A DNA stretch of 64,000 bases from Patescibacteria group bacterium (lineage in GTDB: Bacteria; Patescibacteriota; Minisyncoccia; Ryanbacterales; GWA2-47-10b), in the NCBI GenBank assembly GCA_038065475.1, contig JBBTQY010000001.1:26145-90144 (forward strand), read 5' to 3'. The notes under the pieces were generated by a model that did not search any database, was not told the origin of the DNA, and saw only the letters and a program-made list of their open reading frames with translations. Each line of letters starts with the position of its first letter. Position 1 is the stretch's first letter. Shown piece after piece: positions 57,257-64,000 of the stretch. The translations under genes and the position numbers were made by a program.

Positions 57257-58417
57257 TTAGATGCGTCCCGCGCGAATATCATCACGCACGCGAGCAACCA
57301 ATGCATTAAAATAAAAAAGATTGTGTTTTGAAAGAAGTGACATCGCCGTCATCTCACCTGCGCGCCACAGATGTGTGATGTATGCGCGCGAATAAGTTTT
57401 ACATACTTCGCACGCACATTTCTTATCAAGCGGTTTTTGATCTTTGAGATAGGCGATTTTTTTTATATCAAGCTTGCCGGTACTCGTATAGGCAAACCCG
57501 CGACGAGCATAGTGAGTAGGTACAATACAATCAAATGTATCGGCACCCGCCCTAACGATTGGTACAATATCTTCCGGATATCCAATACCGAGCAAATGCC
57601 GAGGTTTTTCTTCTGGTAGTTCGTCTACTACCCAACCTACCATCCGTGTCATAGCACTCTTGTCATCACCAAACTCGCCACCAATACCAATACCATCAAA
57701 CGGCAATGCCCCCGTAAAACGCGCCGATGCTCTGCGCAAATCTTCAAACTTGCCGCCCTGCACAATACCATAGAGCGCCTGTTTGTTTTTCTTTTTATAT
57801 TTAAGACAAAGCTTGGCCCACAGGTGACTCCGCTCAAGTGAACGCTCAGTATAGGCGCGATCGGCTATCGGCGAGGTGCACTCGTCAAACGCAAAAATAA
57901 TATCAGCACCTAGTTGCTCCTGAATACGCATTGATTCACGCGGGCCGATAAAGATTTTGGCGCCATCGATTGGCGAGCGAAACTCGACGCCTTTGTCAGT
58001 AATGCGCAGTTTCTGCGGTTGTGCACCTTTTTTTATTTCCTTATCACTCTTTTCTTTGAGCATTTTACCCGTACCAAAATCATGCCCAAAGCCAAGACTA
58101 AATACTTGAAATCCACCCGAATCAGTCATCAGCGGCCGCGGCCACTGCATAAACTTATGAAGCCCGCCTGCGCGCGCGACAACCTTCTCACCAGGGCGCA
58201 GGTGGAGGTGAAACGTATTGGCAATCAAAAGTTGCGCTTTTGCGTCAAGTGCATCTTGTGAGGTCAGCGTTTTAACCACTGCTCGCGTCGCTACCGGCAC
58301 AAACGCAGGAGTTTCTATCTCACCGTGCGCGGTACGCAAAACCCCGAGACGCGCTCGGGATTTTTTGGATTTTTTTGTTATGCGAAACGAGAACATAATC
58401 GGCCAATCATACGGCAA
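57257..58417 (-). CDS. tgt: queuine tRNA-ribosyltransferase
   Basis: TIM-barrel TGT and a C-terminal zinc site CACEVC…H. Confidence 0.9.
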   Translation of the reverse strand: MPYDWPIMFSFRITKKSKKSRARLGVLRTAHGEIETPAFVPVATRAVVKTLTSQDALDAKAQLLIANTFHLHLRPGEKVVARAGGLHKFMQWPRPLMTDSGGFQVFSLGFGHDFGTGKMLKEKSDKEIKKGAQPQKLRITDKGVEFRSPIDGAKIFIGPRESMRIQEQLGADIIFAFDECTSPIADRAYTERSLERSHLWAKLCLKYKKKNKQALYGIVQGGKFEDLRRASARFTGALPFDGIGIGGEFGDDKSAMTRMVGWVVDELPEEKPRHLLGIGYPEDIVPIVRAGADTFDCIVPTHYARRGFAYTSTGKLDIKKIAYLKDQKPLDKKCACEVCKTYSRAYITHLWRAGEMTAMSLLSKHNLFYFNALVARVRDDIRAGRI

Positions 58418-58426
58418 ATCAAGTAC

Positions 58427-60337
58427 TTACTCAAGCCTTCCCCCCTTCCAAACTAAAATCGAAAGTTTATCTGCTGGGATGCTGATCGGACGATTCTTGA
58501 ATGTAAACGAAAGACCTTCTTGCTGCTGCCAATTATCAATCACAAACAATTCCTCGCGCGAGCTTCCACGAAAGCGTCTGACATCAATGCCCGCAGGAAT
58601 ATTAGAAAGGCTAATACGGTCCATGTAGACAGGCTTGCGCGCCCACCAGTTTTTTTCATTACGCTCCTCAACGATCATTTTGACTGCTGTGTTGAGTACG
58701 CCAGCTGCTTCCTGCCCAGTCTCAAATGGCCGCATGATATCAAGCTTTGCGCCGAGCAAAAATGCCTCCCGCTCCGTAATGTAGTTGTTGGCAACACCCC
58801 AGTACGCATGACCACCGTTTGATTCTCCCAAAAACATTGCTTGTCCATTGAGAAAATATCTTCCGAACCGAGGAAAACGTGTACGCGCCCCGCCCGGATC
58901 AACCACGTCATTGTTGTTATCAAGAAATCCGCTGATCAAAAACGCGGCAGGATAAATATCATGCACTCCTTCAATGACCGCATCTTTGGGCAATCGATCA
59001 CGCAAGAAACGCGCGACCGTCAAAATATCGCCAAAATCTTGCCGCGCAAAGATATCGATATAGTGTGCATTTGCCTTGTACTCATCGCGATTGCGCGCGA
59101 CCCAGTCAAGGAGGTACGCGGTGTTTGTAGTATTTTCAACGCCGTCTACACCAAAGAGTGGACCGCCCTCGGTGATCAAATGCGGGCGAGAATAATAACC
59201 TACGCGACCTCCGCTCACCGCAACGGACTCTGCAAACTGCGGTAATGACGACACGTAGCGCGGATGCATTTCTGTTTTATCAACACAGCATCCTACCAGT
59301 TCACCTGGGAGCGGCGACGGCACCGCAAGATTGGGCGGTCCTGCATACGTACTCATTTGCCCCCACAGCTGCATCCAAGGAAAATGGGTCTTTGTCTTAT
59401 CATAAAGTGCTTGAATGCTTGCAATATCAAATGACGCGCGATTCTGAAGCTGCACGTTGATCCAGCCGTGAGATGTATTGAGCCAATCGGGGTAAGTTGG
59501 CTTTTCGATTTTTGCGACGCGCAACTGCCGATCAAGCCACGAGCGATATTTATCGACTGCCGTTTGCCATGCTTCTGCTGCACCCACCGTTTTTTTCTTT
59601 TTTACTTTTGCAATGAGTGTTCGGTAGGTTACAGACGTATTGAGAGGCACATCTTGCTCATAACGCAACACCATACGATTGAGTGAATAGAGCGGGGTAA
59701 CTGTGCGTGGGGGCCAGTTTGTCGCAGCGACAATCTTTGCCTCCATATCATTTGCAGAGACTACTAGCGGCGCATAAATGGCCCCCGGGTATTCCAAGCC
59801 CTGCCAACCCCATTCGACAAGCGTGGAATCTTTTTGCGCAGCGCCAAGAAACACCGTACTGTAAATAACCGCATCATCACGCAGAGGATTGAGGGGGTTA
59901 CGCTGAGCTTCCCACGGAAAATAGACTTGGGTAATCGTGCGTACTTTTGTAGTCAGTGTTAACTGCCACTGATCGCGCCCGGCGCGGATAACCATGGCAC
60001 CTACATCAACATCACTTACCACCCCGCTATCGGGAACCGCATACTGTTTGAGTGTGCCATCAGAAAATTTCACCGCAAAACCCGGATACACACTGCCGGC
60101 GACCGATGCACTTTGAGCAAACGTAAGTGGAACATCTTCTGCAGCAAGGGCTTCGGCATCATCCGTGCTGGCGGTAACAATGCTTAATAGCTCTGCGAGG
60201 CCGTGATCAATCGCCTCAACATAAACACTGTAACGCCACCCGACAAACGAAAGAAAGAAAAAAACAGAAGCAGCAAGTATAACGACAACAAAACTTTTAT
60301 CGAGAATTTTAAACATCATGCGCTCCATCATCCCCAC
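58427..60337 (-). CDS. hypothetical large membrane-anchored extracytoplasmic protein (possible glycoside-hydrolase-like)
   Basis: N-terminal TM. 636 aa. No family recognised. Confidence 0.45.
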   Translation of the reverse strand: MGMMERMMFKILDKSFVVVILAASVFFFLSFVGWRYSVYVEAIDHGLAELLSIVTASTDDAEALAAEDVPLTFAQSASVAGSVYPGFAVKFSDGTLKQYAVPDSGVVSDVDVGAMVIRAGRDQWQLTLTTKVRTITQVYFPWEAQRNPLNPLRDDAVIYSTVFLGAAQKDSTLVEWGWQGLEYPGAIYAPLVVSANDMEAKIVAATNWPPRTVTPLYSLNRMVLRYEQDVPLNTSVTYRTLIAKVKKKKTVGAAEAWQTAVDKYRSWLDRQLRVAKIEKPTYPDWLNTSHGWINVQLQNRASFDIASIQALYDKTKTHFPWMQLWGQMSTYAGPPNLAVPSPLPGELVGCCVDKTEMHPRYVSSLPQFAESVAVSGGRVGYYSRPHLITEGGPLFGVDGVENTTNTAYLLDWVARNRDEYKANAHYIDIFARQDFGDILTVARFLRDRLPKDAVIEGVHDIYPAAFLISGFLDNNNDVVDPGGARTRFPRFGRYFLNGQAMFLGESNGGHAYWGVANNYITEREAFLLGAKLDIMRPFETGQEAAGVLNTAVKMIVEERNEKNWWARKPVYMDRISLSNIPAGIDVRRFRGSSREELFVIDNWQQQEGLSFTFKNRPISIPADKLSILVWKGGRLE

Positions 60338-60735
60338 AATGCCAATATGCTCGCCATCACCAAAAATGCAACGAGCTGATACGACACATAGATGAGGAAA
60401 CTCGTCTTGCTCTGACTTTCAAAAGCAACGTCGGCAAGTTTGGTTGTCACAATATATCCAAGCCACGTCCAAAACGCGAGCGGCAATGCGCCACCTACCG
60501 TTGTAATGTCGAGCATTTTAATAAAGTGCGCGAGCACAAACGCCGTGAGCATCGCGCCTACAAACCCCCACGCCATTGCCTGCACCTGTCCACCTTTTTT
60601 TAAATCTTCTTCGGTCTTACCTGATGCTGCCATCCACGCCTTGGCAAAGAGCAACGGTGAATACCAAAGCCCACCGATAATAAAATTGGCGATACCTGCC
60701 GCCAACACTGCCCAGTAATTTACAATGATATCCAT
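60328..60735 (-). CDS. DUF1761-family membrane protein
   Basis: MDIIVNYWAVLAAGIANFIIGGLWYSPLLFAKAW matches the DUF1761 N-terminus. Confidence 0.6.
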   Translation of the reverse strand: MDIIVNYWAVLAAGIANFIIGGLWYSPLLFAKAWMAASGKTEEDLKKGGQVQAMAWGFVGAMLTAFVLAHFIKMLDITTVGGALPLAFWTWLGYIVTTKLADVAFESQSKTSFLIYVSYQLVAFLVMASILALWG

Positions 60736-60764
60736 AAAAAATATATTTTTTATAAAGTGACCGT

Positions 60765-61106
60765 TTATGAACCTAAAATATGCTCAATTTTTGCCGCTAG
60801 AATAAAATCGTTTTCTGAAAGCCCCTTGATCGCATGCGTCCAAAGCTCGATCGTCACGATGCTATATGAAATGTGAATATCGGGATGATGACCTTCACGC
60901 TCTGCGATATCTGCCACTTTATTTACAAAACCAATGGCATCGCGAAACGTACCGAACTCAAACTCGCATAATATTTTCCCCGCATCGGGTGCAAGTTCCC
61001 ATGTTGCACGCAAGTCAGATATCTGACGAATTGCCTGCTGGCGCGTGAGTGGCTGAGCACTTCCTTCGCACGGTACACATTTTTTATCGAGCAATGAACT
61101 TACCAT
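60765..61106 (-). CDS. pterin-4a-carbinolamine dehydratase (PCD/DCoH)
   Basis: …EREGHHPDIHISY… (the [EDKH]-H-H-P motif). Confidence 0.8.
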   Translation of the reverse strand: MVSSLLDKKCVPCEGSAQPLTRQQAIRQISDLRATWELAPDAGKILCEFEFGTFRDAIGFVNKVADIAEREGHHPDIHISYSIVTIELWTHAIKGLSENDFILAAKIEHILGS

Positions 61107-61164
61107 ACACACAGTATCTCACGGTAAGAAAAAACGGGCAAAGAAAAAAGCCGCGCCCGATTGG

Positions 61165-61644
61165 CTACGGCTTTGCCTGACGAGATTTGCGACGAGCCTC
61201 TCTAATGCTGTGCTTTGAGGTGCCCGCGATCCTGCGAACAGAGAGGTACTTTGGCAATTCCTTACCCTGAAGCTTTTGCTTGCGCCATTCCTGGAGACCG
61301 GACCGCAAGTTGTCAGCGTCAAGATCGCAGGCCGAACAGATATTCGCGAACGAATACGGCCAGGTGATGTTCTGAGATTCGATCCAAGCCTGAGCCTCAC
61401 GAAAAAGTCTTTGTCCACGGCGGTTGGAAGGAGCGGCAGACGCATATCTCTGGTAGGTAGCGATGGCATCAGTGAGCACGGCGAGCATAAGCCGCATCTC
61501 CGCCCTGTCTCGAATTGCAGAACTACCACTCTGCGAAACCCCACCAAAGAACTGGCCGGGAAGAATTGCATTGCCGCCGAAAATCGTCACCGCTGAACTA
61601 CTCGCAAGAATGCCGGCCACTCGCGCATGAGCAGACATCATCAC
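61165..61644 (-). CDS. hypothetical protein, paralog A (GC-rich island)
   Basis: Shares the LAVLxDAIAxxQ…AWxxS…WPYSFxxICS…LRxxLxxWR module with 61651..62121. GAGGAG SD. Confidence 0.45.
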   Translation of the reverse strand: MMMSAHARVAGILASSSAVTIFGGNAILPGQFFGGVSQSGSSAIRDRAEMRLMLAVLTDAIATYQRYASAAPSNRRGQRLFREAQAWIESQNITWPYSFANICSACDLDADNLRSGLQEWRKQKLQGKELPKYLSVRRIAGTSKHSIREARRKSRQAKP

Positions 61645-61650
61645 CTCCTC

Positions 61651-62121
61651 TTAGTCACGAGCTTGAACAGAATGTCGATGTACTCGGTTAGCACGCCGCG
61701 GCGTACGAGGAACGGGCAGGACAATCATCCGACGCCACTTCCAAAGATTTTGACGTAGCTCCGTGGAGTCGAATCCGAAAAGACTGCAGATACTCTCAAA
61801 GGAGTAGGGCCACGAGCAATCGCGCGAGGTAAACCATGCACTCACCTCTTCGAACTGCTGCTTATCTCTTCGCCCAAACGCGCAAGCATGCAGCTGGAAG
61901 AGAGCAATCGCGTCTTCAAGTACCGCCAGCGCCAAACGGTATTCCCCCGAAAGATCGTCAACACCCACTTCGATACCTTGTGCGAATGTACCGAAGAAAA
62001 CCTCGGGCGGAACCCAGTCGGGTTCTAAGAGGCCCTCAACCCCATCCCGAGAAAAGACATTTCCGTACGTGTTGCCGAACCCCCGCTGTACCATGTTGGA
62101 AATAACGCCGATACGAACCAT
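61651..62121 (-). CDS. hypothetical protein, paralog B (GC-rich island)
   Basis: Same conserved module as paralog A. GGGGGAGGG SD. Confidence 0.45.
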   Translation of the reverse strand: MVRIGVISNMVQRGFGNTYGNVFSRDGVEGLLEPDWVPPEVFFGTFAQGIEVGVDDLSGEYRLALAVLEDAIALFQLHACAFGRRDKQQFEEVSAWFTSRDCSWPYSFESICSLFGFDSTELRQNLWKWRRMIVLPVPRTPRRANRVHRHSVQARD

Positions 62122-62244
62122 CGCAATGTCCCTCCCCCAAAGTAAGAAATCTGAATAAGATTGTAGAAGAAAGAAGAAGATTATGCAAGAGATTGACTAG
62201 CTTGTCAAAAACCTCTATCAATAGAGAGGAAAGGAGTTCGCACA

Positions 62245-62468
62245 TGAAAACTAAAAAGCCGTGCTCATCTTACGGCTACCATTCGATACGCGTAATCTCG
62301 ACAAAGCGTATCGCACGCGAAAAACAATCGACCATCCCCGGCCTTGGTGCGCTCGCCCTCTCATGGACGGAAGTGCGTACCCGGCACCGCTGCCGTACCT
62401 GCCGCCGCCAACGCACGATCATCACGCGGGAAAACTATCGCCAACAGCACTCGCCGCCTCCTACCTAG
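62245..62468 (+). CDS. small basic protein (74 aa)
   Basis: AAAGGAG 7 nt before the ATG. Lys/Arg-rich. Divergent from the paralog pair. Confidence 0.35.
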
Positions 62469-63067
62469 GGGTGGCTTTCTTTTTCCAATGCTTCAATTAC
62501 CTCTTTGCTATTCATATATTTATAAAATATTCCCACCACAATAAGGGCTACTAGTGAAAGCACAAGAGCGTACGCACCAAAAATATCTTCGGTCTTACCA
62601 AAGAAATATCCGATCGCCAAAAAGATAAGCGACCAGAGCCATGACGAGATAAAAATAATCGGCACAAAAACCGCGCGATGCATTTTAGAAACGCCCGCGG
62701 GAATCGGCGCGAACACTTTGATGGCTGGCAACATCTTTGCTACAAATAAAAACCATGCTCCTCGCCTCCGAAACGCGATAATAATTTTTTTTACTTCACG
62801 CTCAGGAAACATCGCCCATTTGGTAATATACGCAATACCATATGCGCGCACTAACTCATAGAGTATAATATTGCCGATCGTGTTACCAAGCGCACCCACA
62901 AGTGTAGTAATCCATATATTGAGGTGTCCTAATGAACCAAAATATCCAGCGACAATATATAAAACCTGACTCGATGGAAAGCTGATAAACCCATTGGCAA
63001 TCATCAGCAAGAAAACGCCTGCGTATCCTAACGCCTGCAAGATAGATTCAAAGGGTACGGCAAACAT
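62465..63067 (-). CDS. DedA/VTT-domain family membrane protein
   Basis: Second DedA paralog in the window, with the conserved G-rich re-entrant region. Confidence 0.75.
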   Translation of the reverse strand: MFAVPFESILQALGYAGVFLLMIANGFISFPSSQVLYIVAGYFGSLGHLNIWITTLVGALGNTIGNIILYELVRAYGIAYITKWAMFPEREVKKIIIAFRRRGAWFLFVAKMLPAIKVFAPIPAGVSKMHRAVFVPIIFISSWLWSLIFLAIGYFFGKTEDIFGAYALVLSLVALIVVGIFYKYMNSKEVIEALEKESHP

Positions 63068-63076
63068 ATCTCTATA

Positions 63077-64000
63077 CTAGCGAATCAGCATCGCATCACC
63101 AAAAGAATAAAAACGAAACTTTTTACGTATAGCGATTTTATAGAGATCGACGACTCCTCGCCTTGCGTGCTTGTGCTGTAAAAATGCGTCAACGAGCAGC
63201 ATAAGTGATGATTGGGGTAGATGAAAATTGGTAATCAGCCCATCGATGATGCGAAATCGATACGGCGGATAGATAAAAATATCCGTTGCTCTCTTGCCCG
63301 CCAAATGTGAACTCTCGCGCGCCGCGCTCTCGAGTGCTCGCGTGGCTGTCGTACCCACAGCAATGATAGGATGTCCCACTTTTTTTGCATCATTGATGCG
63401 GCGCGCGCTCCCACGAGAGATTTCATAATATTCGGTAAAAAGTTTTTTGGTGCGTAGTTCACGCTCACCAAAGGGTGCGAACGTACCCATGCCCACATGC
63501 AACGCTACCTCTGTATGTGTAACATGTTTTTTCTCAAGTGTACGAAATACCTGTGGCGTAAAATGAAGTGATGCGGTGGGCGCCGCAACTGACGCCGCAC
63601 GCTTGGCAAAAATACTTTGATAGCGCAAACGCAACGTGCGCTCGGGCATTTCGCCGCCCGCAAGATATTTTGGTATCGGCGTCTCGCCTACCTTTGATAA
63701 AAACCTGATGAGCGTCTCGCGCGAAACATTTGGCTTGAGAAAAAACAATTTTCCTTCCTGCCCCACCACACGAAATTGATGACGCGCGCCAGCGCGCAAT
63801 ATCTGACCAACCGTTACCTTGCGATCGCAAAGCGCCTTGAGCGGTTCTCCTGCACGCCATTCGTTGATCAGCAACAATGCAACCACCTTCCCACCCGTCT
63901 CCTTGGTGAGCGTAATACGCGCCGGTACTACTTTTGTTTCATTGAGCACTAACAGTGACTGGGGCGCCAGATACTGTGCGATGTTTCGAAACTCATCGAA
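63077..64000 (-). CDS. queA: S-adenosylmethionine:tRNA ribosyltransferase-isomerase (partial; N-terminus beyond window end)
   Basis: GTTATRALESAA, FHLPQSSLMLLV and RFYSFGDAMLI motifs. The frame stays open upstream of the annotated GTG (…FDEFRNIAQYLAPQSLLVLNETKVVPAR…) to the window edge, matching the QueA N-terminus. Confidence 0.85.
   Translation of the reverse strand, partial: FDEFRNIAQYLAPQSLLVLNETKVVPARITLTKETGGKVVALLLINEWRAGEPLKALCDRKVTVGQILRAGARHQFRVVGQEGKLFFLKPNVSRETLIRFLSKVGETPIPKYLAGGEMPERTLRLRYQSIFAKRAASVAAPTASLHFTPQVFRTLEKKHVTHTEVALHVGMGTFAPFGERELRTKKLFTEYYEISRGSARRINDAKKVGHPIIAVGTTATRALESAARESSHLAGKRATDIFIYPPYRFRIIDGLITNFHLPQSSLMLLVDAFLQHKHARRGVVDLYKIAIRKKFRFYSFGDAMLIR

Follow-up and report, generated by a model that had tools for sequence, protein, structure and literature searches.

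Two adjacent genes of a groundwater Patescibacteria genome, referred to here as A and B, almost certainly encode diverged members of an unnamed and very large family, whose proteins have ~130-200 amino acids (aa); the family is new to every curated resource that we tested and is without a solved relative. The genes lie in a stretch of 64,000 nucleotides (nt), hereafter the window, of a Patescibacteria metagenome-assembled genome from Hainich groundwater, and we hold the account given below of what these genes are and where they sit with similarly high confidence. Judged by sequence, both are firmly placed as expressed-looking members of the family, and it is equally firm that the slot in which they sit, with a resident promoter on one side and a pterin-4a-carbinolamine dehydratase gene on the other, is variable. 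With regard to function, we tentatively favor the reading that these are small nucleic-acid-binding regulatory or nucleoid-associated proteins, with DNA binding the most likely activity. The family comprises thousands of sequence clusters in environmental genomes, yet it has no name, domain model or solved relative, and it represents a sizeable part of the protein "dark matter" of soil and groundwater bacteria.

Word-indexed searches returned few relatives, and A or B alone as the query still recovered family members. The A1 profile (7 sequences, A and B among them) was searched exhaustively against 1.84 billion representatives and matched 9,268 clusters (formed at 50% identity) at an expect value (E) of 1e-3 or less, 5,033 at E<=1e-10 and 91 at E<=1e-30; the listed matches span nearly the whole profile and are mostly 110-220 aa in length. 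The scores of A (1.7e-54) and B (2.1e-51) against this profile are partly circular, as both are in it, and at the sequence level the membership of the two proteins appears independently backed by the 5,033 other clusters and by the single-sequence searches. A second search with an 86-sequence profile, in which 8,000 candidates were scored, resulted in 2,033 proteins at E<=1e-5, with nearly all of the named ones annotated as "hypothetical protein". All 80 of the species-representative loci that were fetched are from metagenome-assembled or uncultured genomes, most of them labeled Binatia, "Deltaproteobacteria", Myxococcales or Thermodesulfobacteriota and a few Ryanbacteria, Saccharibacteria, Margulisiibacteriota or Terriglobia. 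The median guanine-plus-cytosine (GC) content of family loci is 0.66. Additionally, 7 IMG/VR viral contigs encode family members.

Neither A and B nor the 74-aa product of a divergent neighboring gene had a match in Pfam, NCBIfam, PHROGs or PADLOC. An earlier note on this DNA, made from the sequence alone, had likewise recognized no family, and the homology that we found leads to a large but unnamed family and not to a known one. The 86 family members, when compared with Pfam, NCBIfam and PHROGs, gave nothing in the shared domain; sequence-profile searches of the PDB gave no match, whether the query was the full-length alignment, the core or only the helix 3-4 segment; and PDB fold searches gave no match to the family and did not return helix-turn-helix (HTH) proteins. 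By tblastn no family member was found in GenBank phages or PLSDB plasmids, an Rfam scan of 60500-63200 returned nothing, and literature searches by lineage and by motif strings found no paper in the library searched that contains the motif strings. Domain fusions were considered as a clue to function and rejected, the longer members having no Pfam domain except for one with an added C-terminal HTH_23. The IMG label "transposase-like protein", carried by three members, has no Pfam support.

The features of the A/B unit are listed below.

61651..62121, minus strand: gene A, an open reading frame (ORF) of 156 aa, identical to deposited protein P0001, the first gene of the unit
61165..61638, minus strand: gene B, 157 aa from the ATG at 61638, a 100% match to deposited protein P0003
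62130..62138, minus strand: Shine-Dalgarno (SD) sequence GGGGGAGGG of A, 8 nt before the ATG at 62121, read from the sequence
61644..61650, minus strand: SD sequence GAGGAGG of B, inside the gap between A and B, read from the sequence
62180..62208, minus strand: sigma-70-like promoter TTGACA-17 nt-CATAAT, 11/12 matches, upstream of A, from a promoter scan
61141..61174, minus strand: terminator-like hairpin AAGCCG...CGGCTT followed by a T-run, just past B and before the dehydratase gene, from reading of the sequence

The earlier note had described two adjacent same-strand paralogs of ~157 aa, both with strong SDs, and most of this description was borne out. A and B share 38% identity over 125 residues (BLASTP, E=7e-25), with no third copy found by tblastn in the whole window, and the two SDs are those listed. 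The lengths also hold (156 and 157 aa), and what changed is the start of B: the mechanical ORF (61165-61644(-), 159 aa) begins at a GTG at 61644, and the ATG at 61638 is most likely the true start because its SD spacing fits and the resulting 157 aa equal deposited P0003. The stop codon of A (61653-61651) is separated from the start of B by 12 nt, and because the SD of B lies within this gap, the arrangement implies that the two genes are co-transcribed, with their translation probably coupled. Given the near-consensus promoter, the 12-nt gap with its SD and the hairpin after B, the pair looks like one transcription unit that is driven by this promoter and ends at a weak hairpin with a T-run. 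The promoter is kept in all four of the related genomes compared (L014, L100, L086 and L101). The hairpin at 61141..61174 was not called by a simple terminator scan; in L100 and L101 a hairpin and T-run ending ...CGGCTTTTTTCTTT, clearer than that of the window, lie 3' of the family gene, while L014 retains the CGGCTTTTTTCTTT end with no clear stem made out. The observation that A diverges fast from its L101 ortholog (74% aa identity) despite a near-identical promoter would fit a situation in which A, B or both are non-functional remnants or go unexpressed. This is extremely improbable, given that neither ORF is disrupted or has lost any invariant family residue, that both have strong SDs and A a near-consensus promoter, that contigs from several samples encode these same proteins, and that the AlphaFold core is highly confident.

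Column conservation was taken from an alignment of 86 members. The family has an acidic N-terminus ending ..LFEPD and an N-terminal motif [ILV]LPxQ[FY]F, whose P and Q are each present in 93% of the 86 members and which is followed by a short variable linker. Three conserved stretches come after it: E-[KR]-R-L-M-L-A-V-L-E-D-A-[VI]-x-x-[FY]-Q in helix 1, with an invariant Leu; F-x-E-A-E-x-W, with an invariant Trp; and W-P-F-S-F-E-N-[IV]-C-x-x-L-G-[LI]-D-P-x-Y-L-R-x-G-L-x-x-W, whose Cys is invariant (86/86). Besides L, W and C, nearly invariant residues are P, Q, E, R, F and W, and the basic tail often carries ..YRFPFRRVNGRRHSI... The module that had been noticed as shared by the two proteins (LAVLxDAI...F.EAxAW...WPYSFxxICS...LRxxLxxWR) is the conserved core of this family. 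Both A and B hold the invariant Leu (helix 1), Trp (helix 2) and Cys (helix 3), which in A are L63, W96 and C112, as well as E-[KR]-R-L, F-x-E and R-x-x-L-x-x-W. The N-terminal motif is the canonical LPGQFF in B and PPEVFF in A, where P and FF are kept and Q is replaced by V, as it is in the Patescibacteria copies L014 and P0018. The basic tail with its RR-x-x-G..HS[IV] motif reads PRRANRVHRHSV (+5) in A and VRRIAGTSKHSI (+9) in B.

For protein A, AlphaFold run with the alignment predicts four helices (residues 59-77, 84-98, 108-115 and 119-134) at a predicted local distance difference test score (pLDDT) >95, with low confidence for residues 1-58 and the tail; a core-only model reached a pLDDT of 93.7 and a predicted template modeling score of 0.81. 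The shared module, which had already been taken to be helical, is thus confidently predicted to form a compact four-helix core (pLDDT ~94-97). Median net charge rises from -3 in the N-terminus to +3 in helix 4 and +6 in the tail, with a median isoelectric point (pI) of 9.0 across the family and a pI of 6.3 for protein A. The longer members of ~194 aa have low-complexity tails rich in Ala, Pro, Lys and Arg.

Four further genomes have the local order QueA-(methyltransferase)-DedA-[74-aa gene]-...-dehydratase, and the content of the slot differs among them as follows.

Window: two family genes, A and B
L101: the A ortholog only (74% identity), then the hairpin and the dehydratase gene; promoter near-identical to that of the window
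L014 (Ryanbacteria, Lake Baikal): one copy, 58% identical to the L100 copy and ~36-43% to A or B
L100: one copy, 58% identical to the L014 copy and ~36-43% to A or B
L086 (Hainich well H51): no family gene; the same promoter abuts the dehydratase gene

Because L014 and L086 are the closest genome pair (DedA 96% identical), the simplest account of the empty site in L086 is a loss. Junctions at the slot are clean: the window has B placed exactly between a stretch ...CGTGAC and a stretch AAGCCGTA..., and in L101 these two stretches are only a single base apart. The flanks of the locus, pterin-4a-carbinolamine dehydratase and DedA, are both native, as had been stated. A recent tandem duplication giving rise to A and B was rejected, since the two are as far apart as random family members. 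Their identity (33-38%) equals the family-wide average and the closest relative of B is a non-Patescibacteria protein (43%), and the pair is therefore old or assembled from separate sources and not a fresh duplicate. The slot offers an unusually clean natural experiment, with two, one or no copies at one promoter-proximal site in close relatives, and could reveal what effect these genes have on the host or on the downstream operon.

The locus had also been called a GC-rich islet, and this turned out to be weak. The excess is small (A 0.54 and B 0.55, against 0.482 +/- 0.055 for the 55 other long ORFs of the window; z=1.1-1.3) and within the range of background ORFs, several of which are richer (0.58-0.62); for GC content at third codon positions (GC3), z is 0.6-0.7. 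The A/B region stands out only in comparison with its two immediate, AT-richer neighbors. Furthermore, the phage or defence context which the earlier note had raised as a question found no backing in PHROGs, PADLOC or the neighborhood. There is no integrase or transposase in the 20 kb around the locus, no tRNA turned up at the locus, where no scan aimed at tRNAs was made, and flanking repeats are at chance level only, with nothing beyond a short T/C-rich stretch. We firmly conclude that the locus carries no compositional island and no defence or mobile-element signature. A toxin-antitoxin pair was likewise rejected, as A and B are paralogs of each other and relatives function with one copy or none.

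These results bear on an alternative in which the family gene is a mobile or phage-derived cassette (a moron, an anti-defence gene or a host-takeover gene) that landed beside the resident promoter and has no role in host physiology. Such a cassette would fit the presence of 2, 1, 1, 1 or 0 copies at exactly the same site in relatives with clean junctions, the family genes that lie 7-8 GC points above their own locus in three other Patescibacteria, the members on the 7 IMG/VR viral contigs, and the nearest relatives of B, which are on non-Patescibacteria contigs. We nevertheless consider it quite unlikely: the signs of mobility looked for around A and B are lacking, as are matches in GenBank phages, plasmids, PHROGs or PADLOC; the chromosomal positions in Binatia-like genomes are stable and vertically inherited; the close kinship of L014 and L086 makes the empty site most simply a loss; and composition in the window deviates no further than genes normally do.

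The promoter region of A and B is shared with the gene transcribed divergently from it, for which the following features were recorded.

62244..62468, plus strand: 74-aa gene, with its own SD AAGGAG 7 nt upstream; its last codons overlap the DedA stop codon
62453..62485, plus strand: hairpin and T-run where the 74-aa gene ends, overlapping the stop codon of DedA, from the terminator scan; conserved in L014
62193..62208, no strand: perfect palindrome TTGAC-N6-GTCAA, made up of the -35 boxes of the two divergent promoters, which lie back to back

The 74-aa ORF exists with its own SD as the earlier note had described, and what has to be dropped is its inclusion in an islet with A and B, because L086 carries it without any family gene. 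Its start, stop and length are unchanged across four genomes, and the ratio of nonsynonymous to synonymous substitution rates (dN/dS) is lowest in its own frame in 6/6 pairwise comparisons (0.18-0.40), where changes are in excess at third positions. In the antisense frame whose wobble position coincides with its own there are 4-7 stops, and antisense or shifted frames were rejected as the real coding frame, having stops or a dN/dS of ~1. We firmly regard this gene as a native neighbor under purifying selection, independent of the family genes. Conservation of C7, H13, C50-x-x-C53 and a C-terminal RENxRQxHxPPPT suggests that its product may be a small zinc-binding protein.

The back-to-back promoters of the A/B unit and the 74-aa gene span 62180-62221. 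The arms of the palindrome between them are conserved and its spacer is variable in five genomes, and it is the only exact copy in the window. By sequence it could be an operator to which a regulator binds; an operator specific to the family was rejected, given that the palindrome is also in L086, which lacks a family gene. In the wider neighborhood (57257-63949, and L003, L014, L086 and L100), the queuosine genes QueA and TGT (tRNA-guanine transglycosylase), together with pterin-4a-carbinolamine dehydratase, bracket the region. A methyltransferase gene lies between QueA and DedA in three relatives and not in the window, and a DUF1761 gene is in the window and not in L014 or L086. Between the DUF1761 gene and the tRNA-guanine transglycosylase gene, 58427-60337(-) encodes a 636-aa protein with an N-terminal hydrophobic segment, which is 631-636 aa long in L014 and L086; it has no NCBIfam match, and no Pfam match is recorded for it in the syntenic loci.

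The setting of the family elsewhere was read from 78 high-GC loci by GC3-aware gene calling, which placed the family gene (F) at no fewer than six conserved positions. Two more lie at iron-sulfur (Fe-S) clusters, so that Binatia-like genomes have at least 8 different conserved positions.

HU > F > CoaE
ATP synthase a and c, ParB > F > PurM
GCS2, unknown < F > YkuD
AMP-ligase < F (F) > UvrD
MerR > F > acyl-CoA dehydrogenase
DacC < F < LexA-like
Fe-S position: IscS-IscU-IscA-HscB-HscA-IscX > F (L087, L089-L092)
Fe-S position: desulfurase-IscA-desulfurase-Rrf2 > F (L088, L054, L064, L075)

Five of the at least 8 positions adjoin genes for DNA-binding proteins (HU, ParB, LexA-like, MerR and Rrf2). 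A single conserved neighbor gene was rejected, the at least 8 synteny groups having no common partner. Paired family copies, as in the window, recur elsewhere, since 25 of 82 loci have a second family hit no more than 6 kb away, conserved tandem pairs among them; 10 of these 25 second hits are weak (E between 1e-3 and 2.6e-5). One tandem pair sits beside a UvrD helicase gene in Binatia-like genomes (L013 4914-5360 and 5992-6378; also L009, L015, L018 and L020-L022) and consists of a divergent upstream copy (E ~1e-16) and a canonical copy (E ~1e-41) 120-650 bp further on, a layout that resembles A/B. On viral contigs, some members are among early-region genes and one is inside a tail module. 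Viral members from IMG/VR include L093 4959-5408, L095 5007-5390 and L097 4256-4579; with neighbors read from sequence only, one viral member lies between a tape-measure-like gene and a P2 GpU-like tail gene, and others are near genes of early-region types (a methylase-like gene and a VRR-NUC-like nuclease).

The two Fe-S positions deserve separate attention. In L087 and L089-L092 (6001-6585; Binataceae-like), a 194-aa member is directly 3' of IscX at the end of a complete isc operon without the usual ferredoxin gene, and the member in L088 (6001-6459), from the other subfamily, comes after an Rrf2 regulator gene within a cysteine-desulfurase cluster. We rejected a general Fe-S linkage, or a role as an iron-sulfur cluster (ISC) assembly accessory protein: it concerns ~5/82 loci and two subfamilies only, and it is not seen in the window. 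A broader version would make the family thiol- or iron-sulfur-linked sensors or accessory factors, in which the single invariant Cys of each monomer ligates a bridging cluster or serves as a redox switch in a dimer. The Cys is indeed invariant in 86/86 members and accompanied by conserved Glu, Arg and Trp, two different subfamilies end Fe-S assembly clusters, and two other groups adjoin GCS2 glutamate-cysteine ligase. This explanation is still highly improbable, as Fe-S neighbors occur in only ~5/82 genome loci, most groups are beside unrelated housekeeping genes (HU/CoaE, ParB/PurM, UvrD, acyl-CoA dehydrogenase), there are no Fe-S genes at the window locus, a lone buried helix Cys is often merely structural, and chance alone should produce some adjacency where a genome has many paralogs.

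The reading that we favor tentatively, small nucleic-acid-binding regulatory or nucleoid-associated proteins, draws on the charge layout, HTH-like spacing, a soft excess of HTH families among weak hits, the low-complexity basic tails and the fixed positions beside DNA-related genes. The segment SFENICxxLGLDPxYLRRGLxxW has the spacing of an HTH. When 62 core-only sequences were scanned against Pfam at a permissive threshold, 5-6 of the 24 sub-threshold families were of HTH type (HTH_29 with three members, HTH_17, HTH_AraC, FeoC, PaaX and Sf6_terminase), a share which we take, on a rough estimate, to be far above the HTH share of Pfam; the best core hit was HTH_29 at E=0.013, below threshold. 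The range of conserved chromosomal positions, five of them beside genes for DNA-binding proteins, is the pattern expected of local regulators or nucleoid proteins and not of pathway enzymes, and the C-terminal HTH_23 added to one member and the viral-contig members in the early region were also counted toward nucleic-acid binding. We infer nucleic-acid binding, dimerization and any regulatory target from such features. Under this proposal, in which A and B are transcribed together from the resident TTGACA/CATAAT promoter, an HTH-like element would be made up of the short helix 3, the turn and the Arg-rich helix 4, with the basic tail supplying extra non-specific affinity; helices 1-2 may form a dimer interface, through which A and B could homo- or heterodimerize; and the N-terminal motif may dock onto a conserved partner.

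Several results weigh against this proposal. No significant match to an HTH or other DNA-binding protein was found for the 86 members in Pfam, NCBIfam and PHROG or in the PDB profile searches (whole, core and helix 3-4), and the HTH excess is a soft signal in which each weak hit is individually insignificant. The basic tail would also fit RNA or ribosome binding, or mere solubility; protein A has a pI of 6.3 and lacks the motif Q; and the added HTH of one member could mean that the core itself does not bind DNA. The suggestion in the earlier note that the module might be a DNA- or regulator-binding domain is plausible: the basic tail, the HTH-like pattern and the weak HTH hits speak for it, while no significant sequence or fold match to an HTH protein was obtained.

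The lack of a DNA-binding fold match is also one of the points that lend weight to a different explanation, in which these are protein-binding adaptors or modulators whose LPxQFF motif docks onto a universal machine (RNA polymerase or a sigma factor, a protease or a chaperone), with the helical core as effector or dimerization module. Consistent with this, the P and Q of the motif, each in 93% of 86 members, stand out within a low-confidence acidic stretch, many paralogs per genome have the motif in common and differ in their tails, and in two loci extracytoplasmic function (ECF) sigma factor genes are a few genes away. On balance we regard adaptors as unlikely: no partner gene is consistently adjacent in the at least 8 synteny groups, the Patescibacteria clade that includes A lost the Q and kept the core, and the strongly basic tails would go unexplained. 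The motif does not appear to fit the clamp-binding or PIP-box consensus either, on a comparison of our own which we counted against this explanation.

If the family does consist of DNA-binding or redox-sensing regulators, it would be a new family in the regulatory repertoire of lineages not yet culturable; otherwise it is no more than a new domain of unknown function that merits registration. A more far-reaching version, which we think very unlikely, would make it an unrecognized regulator or nucleoid class of uncultivated bacteria (Binatia, Myxococcota-like and some Patescibacteria) with its own four-helix fold, the Cys as a thiol- or Fe-S-responsive switch, and paralogs beside housekeeping operons including isc, spreading as a promoter-proximal cassette. 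Spread of this kind would explain why sister genomes have 0, 1 or 2 copies at the same site.

In its overall likeness the family is of a familiar kind, a small helical protein with a basic tail, and a new mechanism is not demonstrated here. It resembles nucleoid proteins with basic low-complexity tails (the C-terminal domain of mycobacterial HupB, and histone H1-like tails) in combining a folded core with a low-confidence tail rich in Lys, Arg, Ala and Pro, and also in having many chromosomal copies per genome, some beside HU or ParB genes. It differs from them in its core, which did not prove to be an HU/IHF, H-NS, Lsr2 or histone fold in the searches run. With the small HTH proteins (the Pfam HTH clan, including Fis/HTH_8, sigma-70 region 4 and HTH_17/23/29) it shares small size, an all-helical make-up, and a short helix, Gly/Asp turn and Arg-rich helix (SFENICxxLGLDPxYLRRGL). 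HTH types are over-represented among the sub-threshold core hits, none of which is significant, and PDB sequence and fold searches return none. Compared with these proteins, the family adds two long front helices, an invariant Cys and Trp, and the N-terminal LPxQFF motif.

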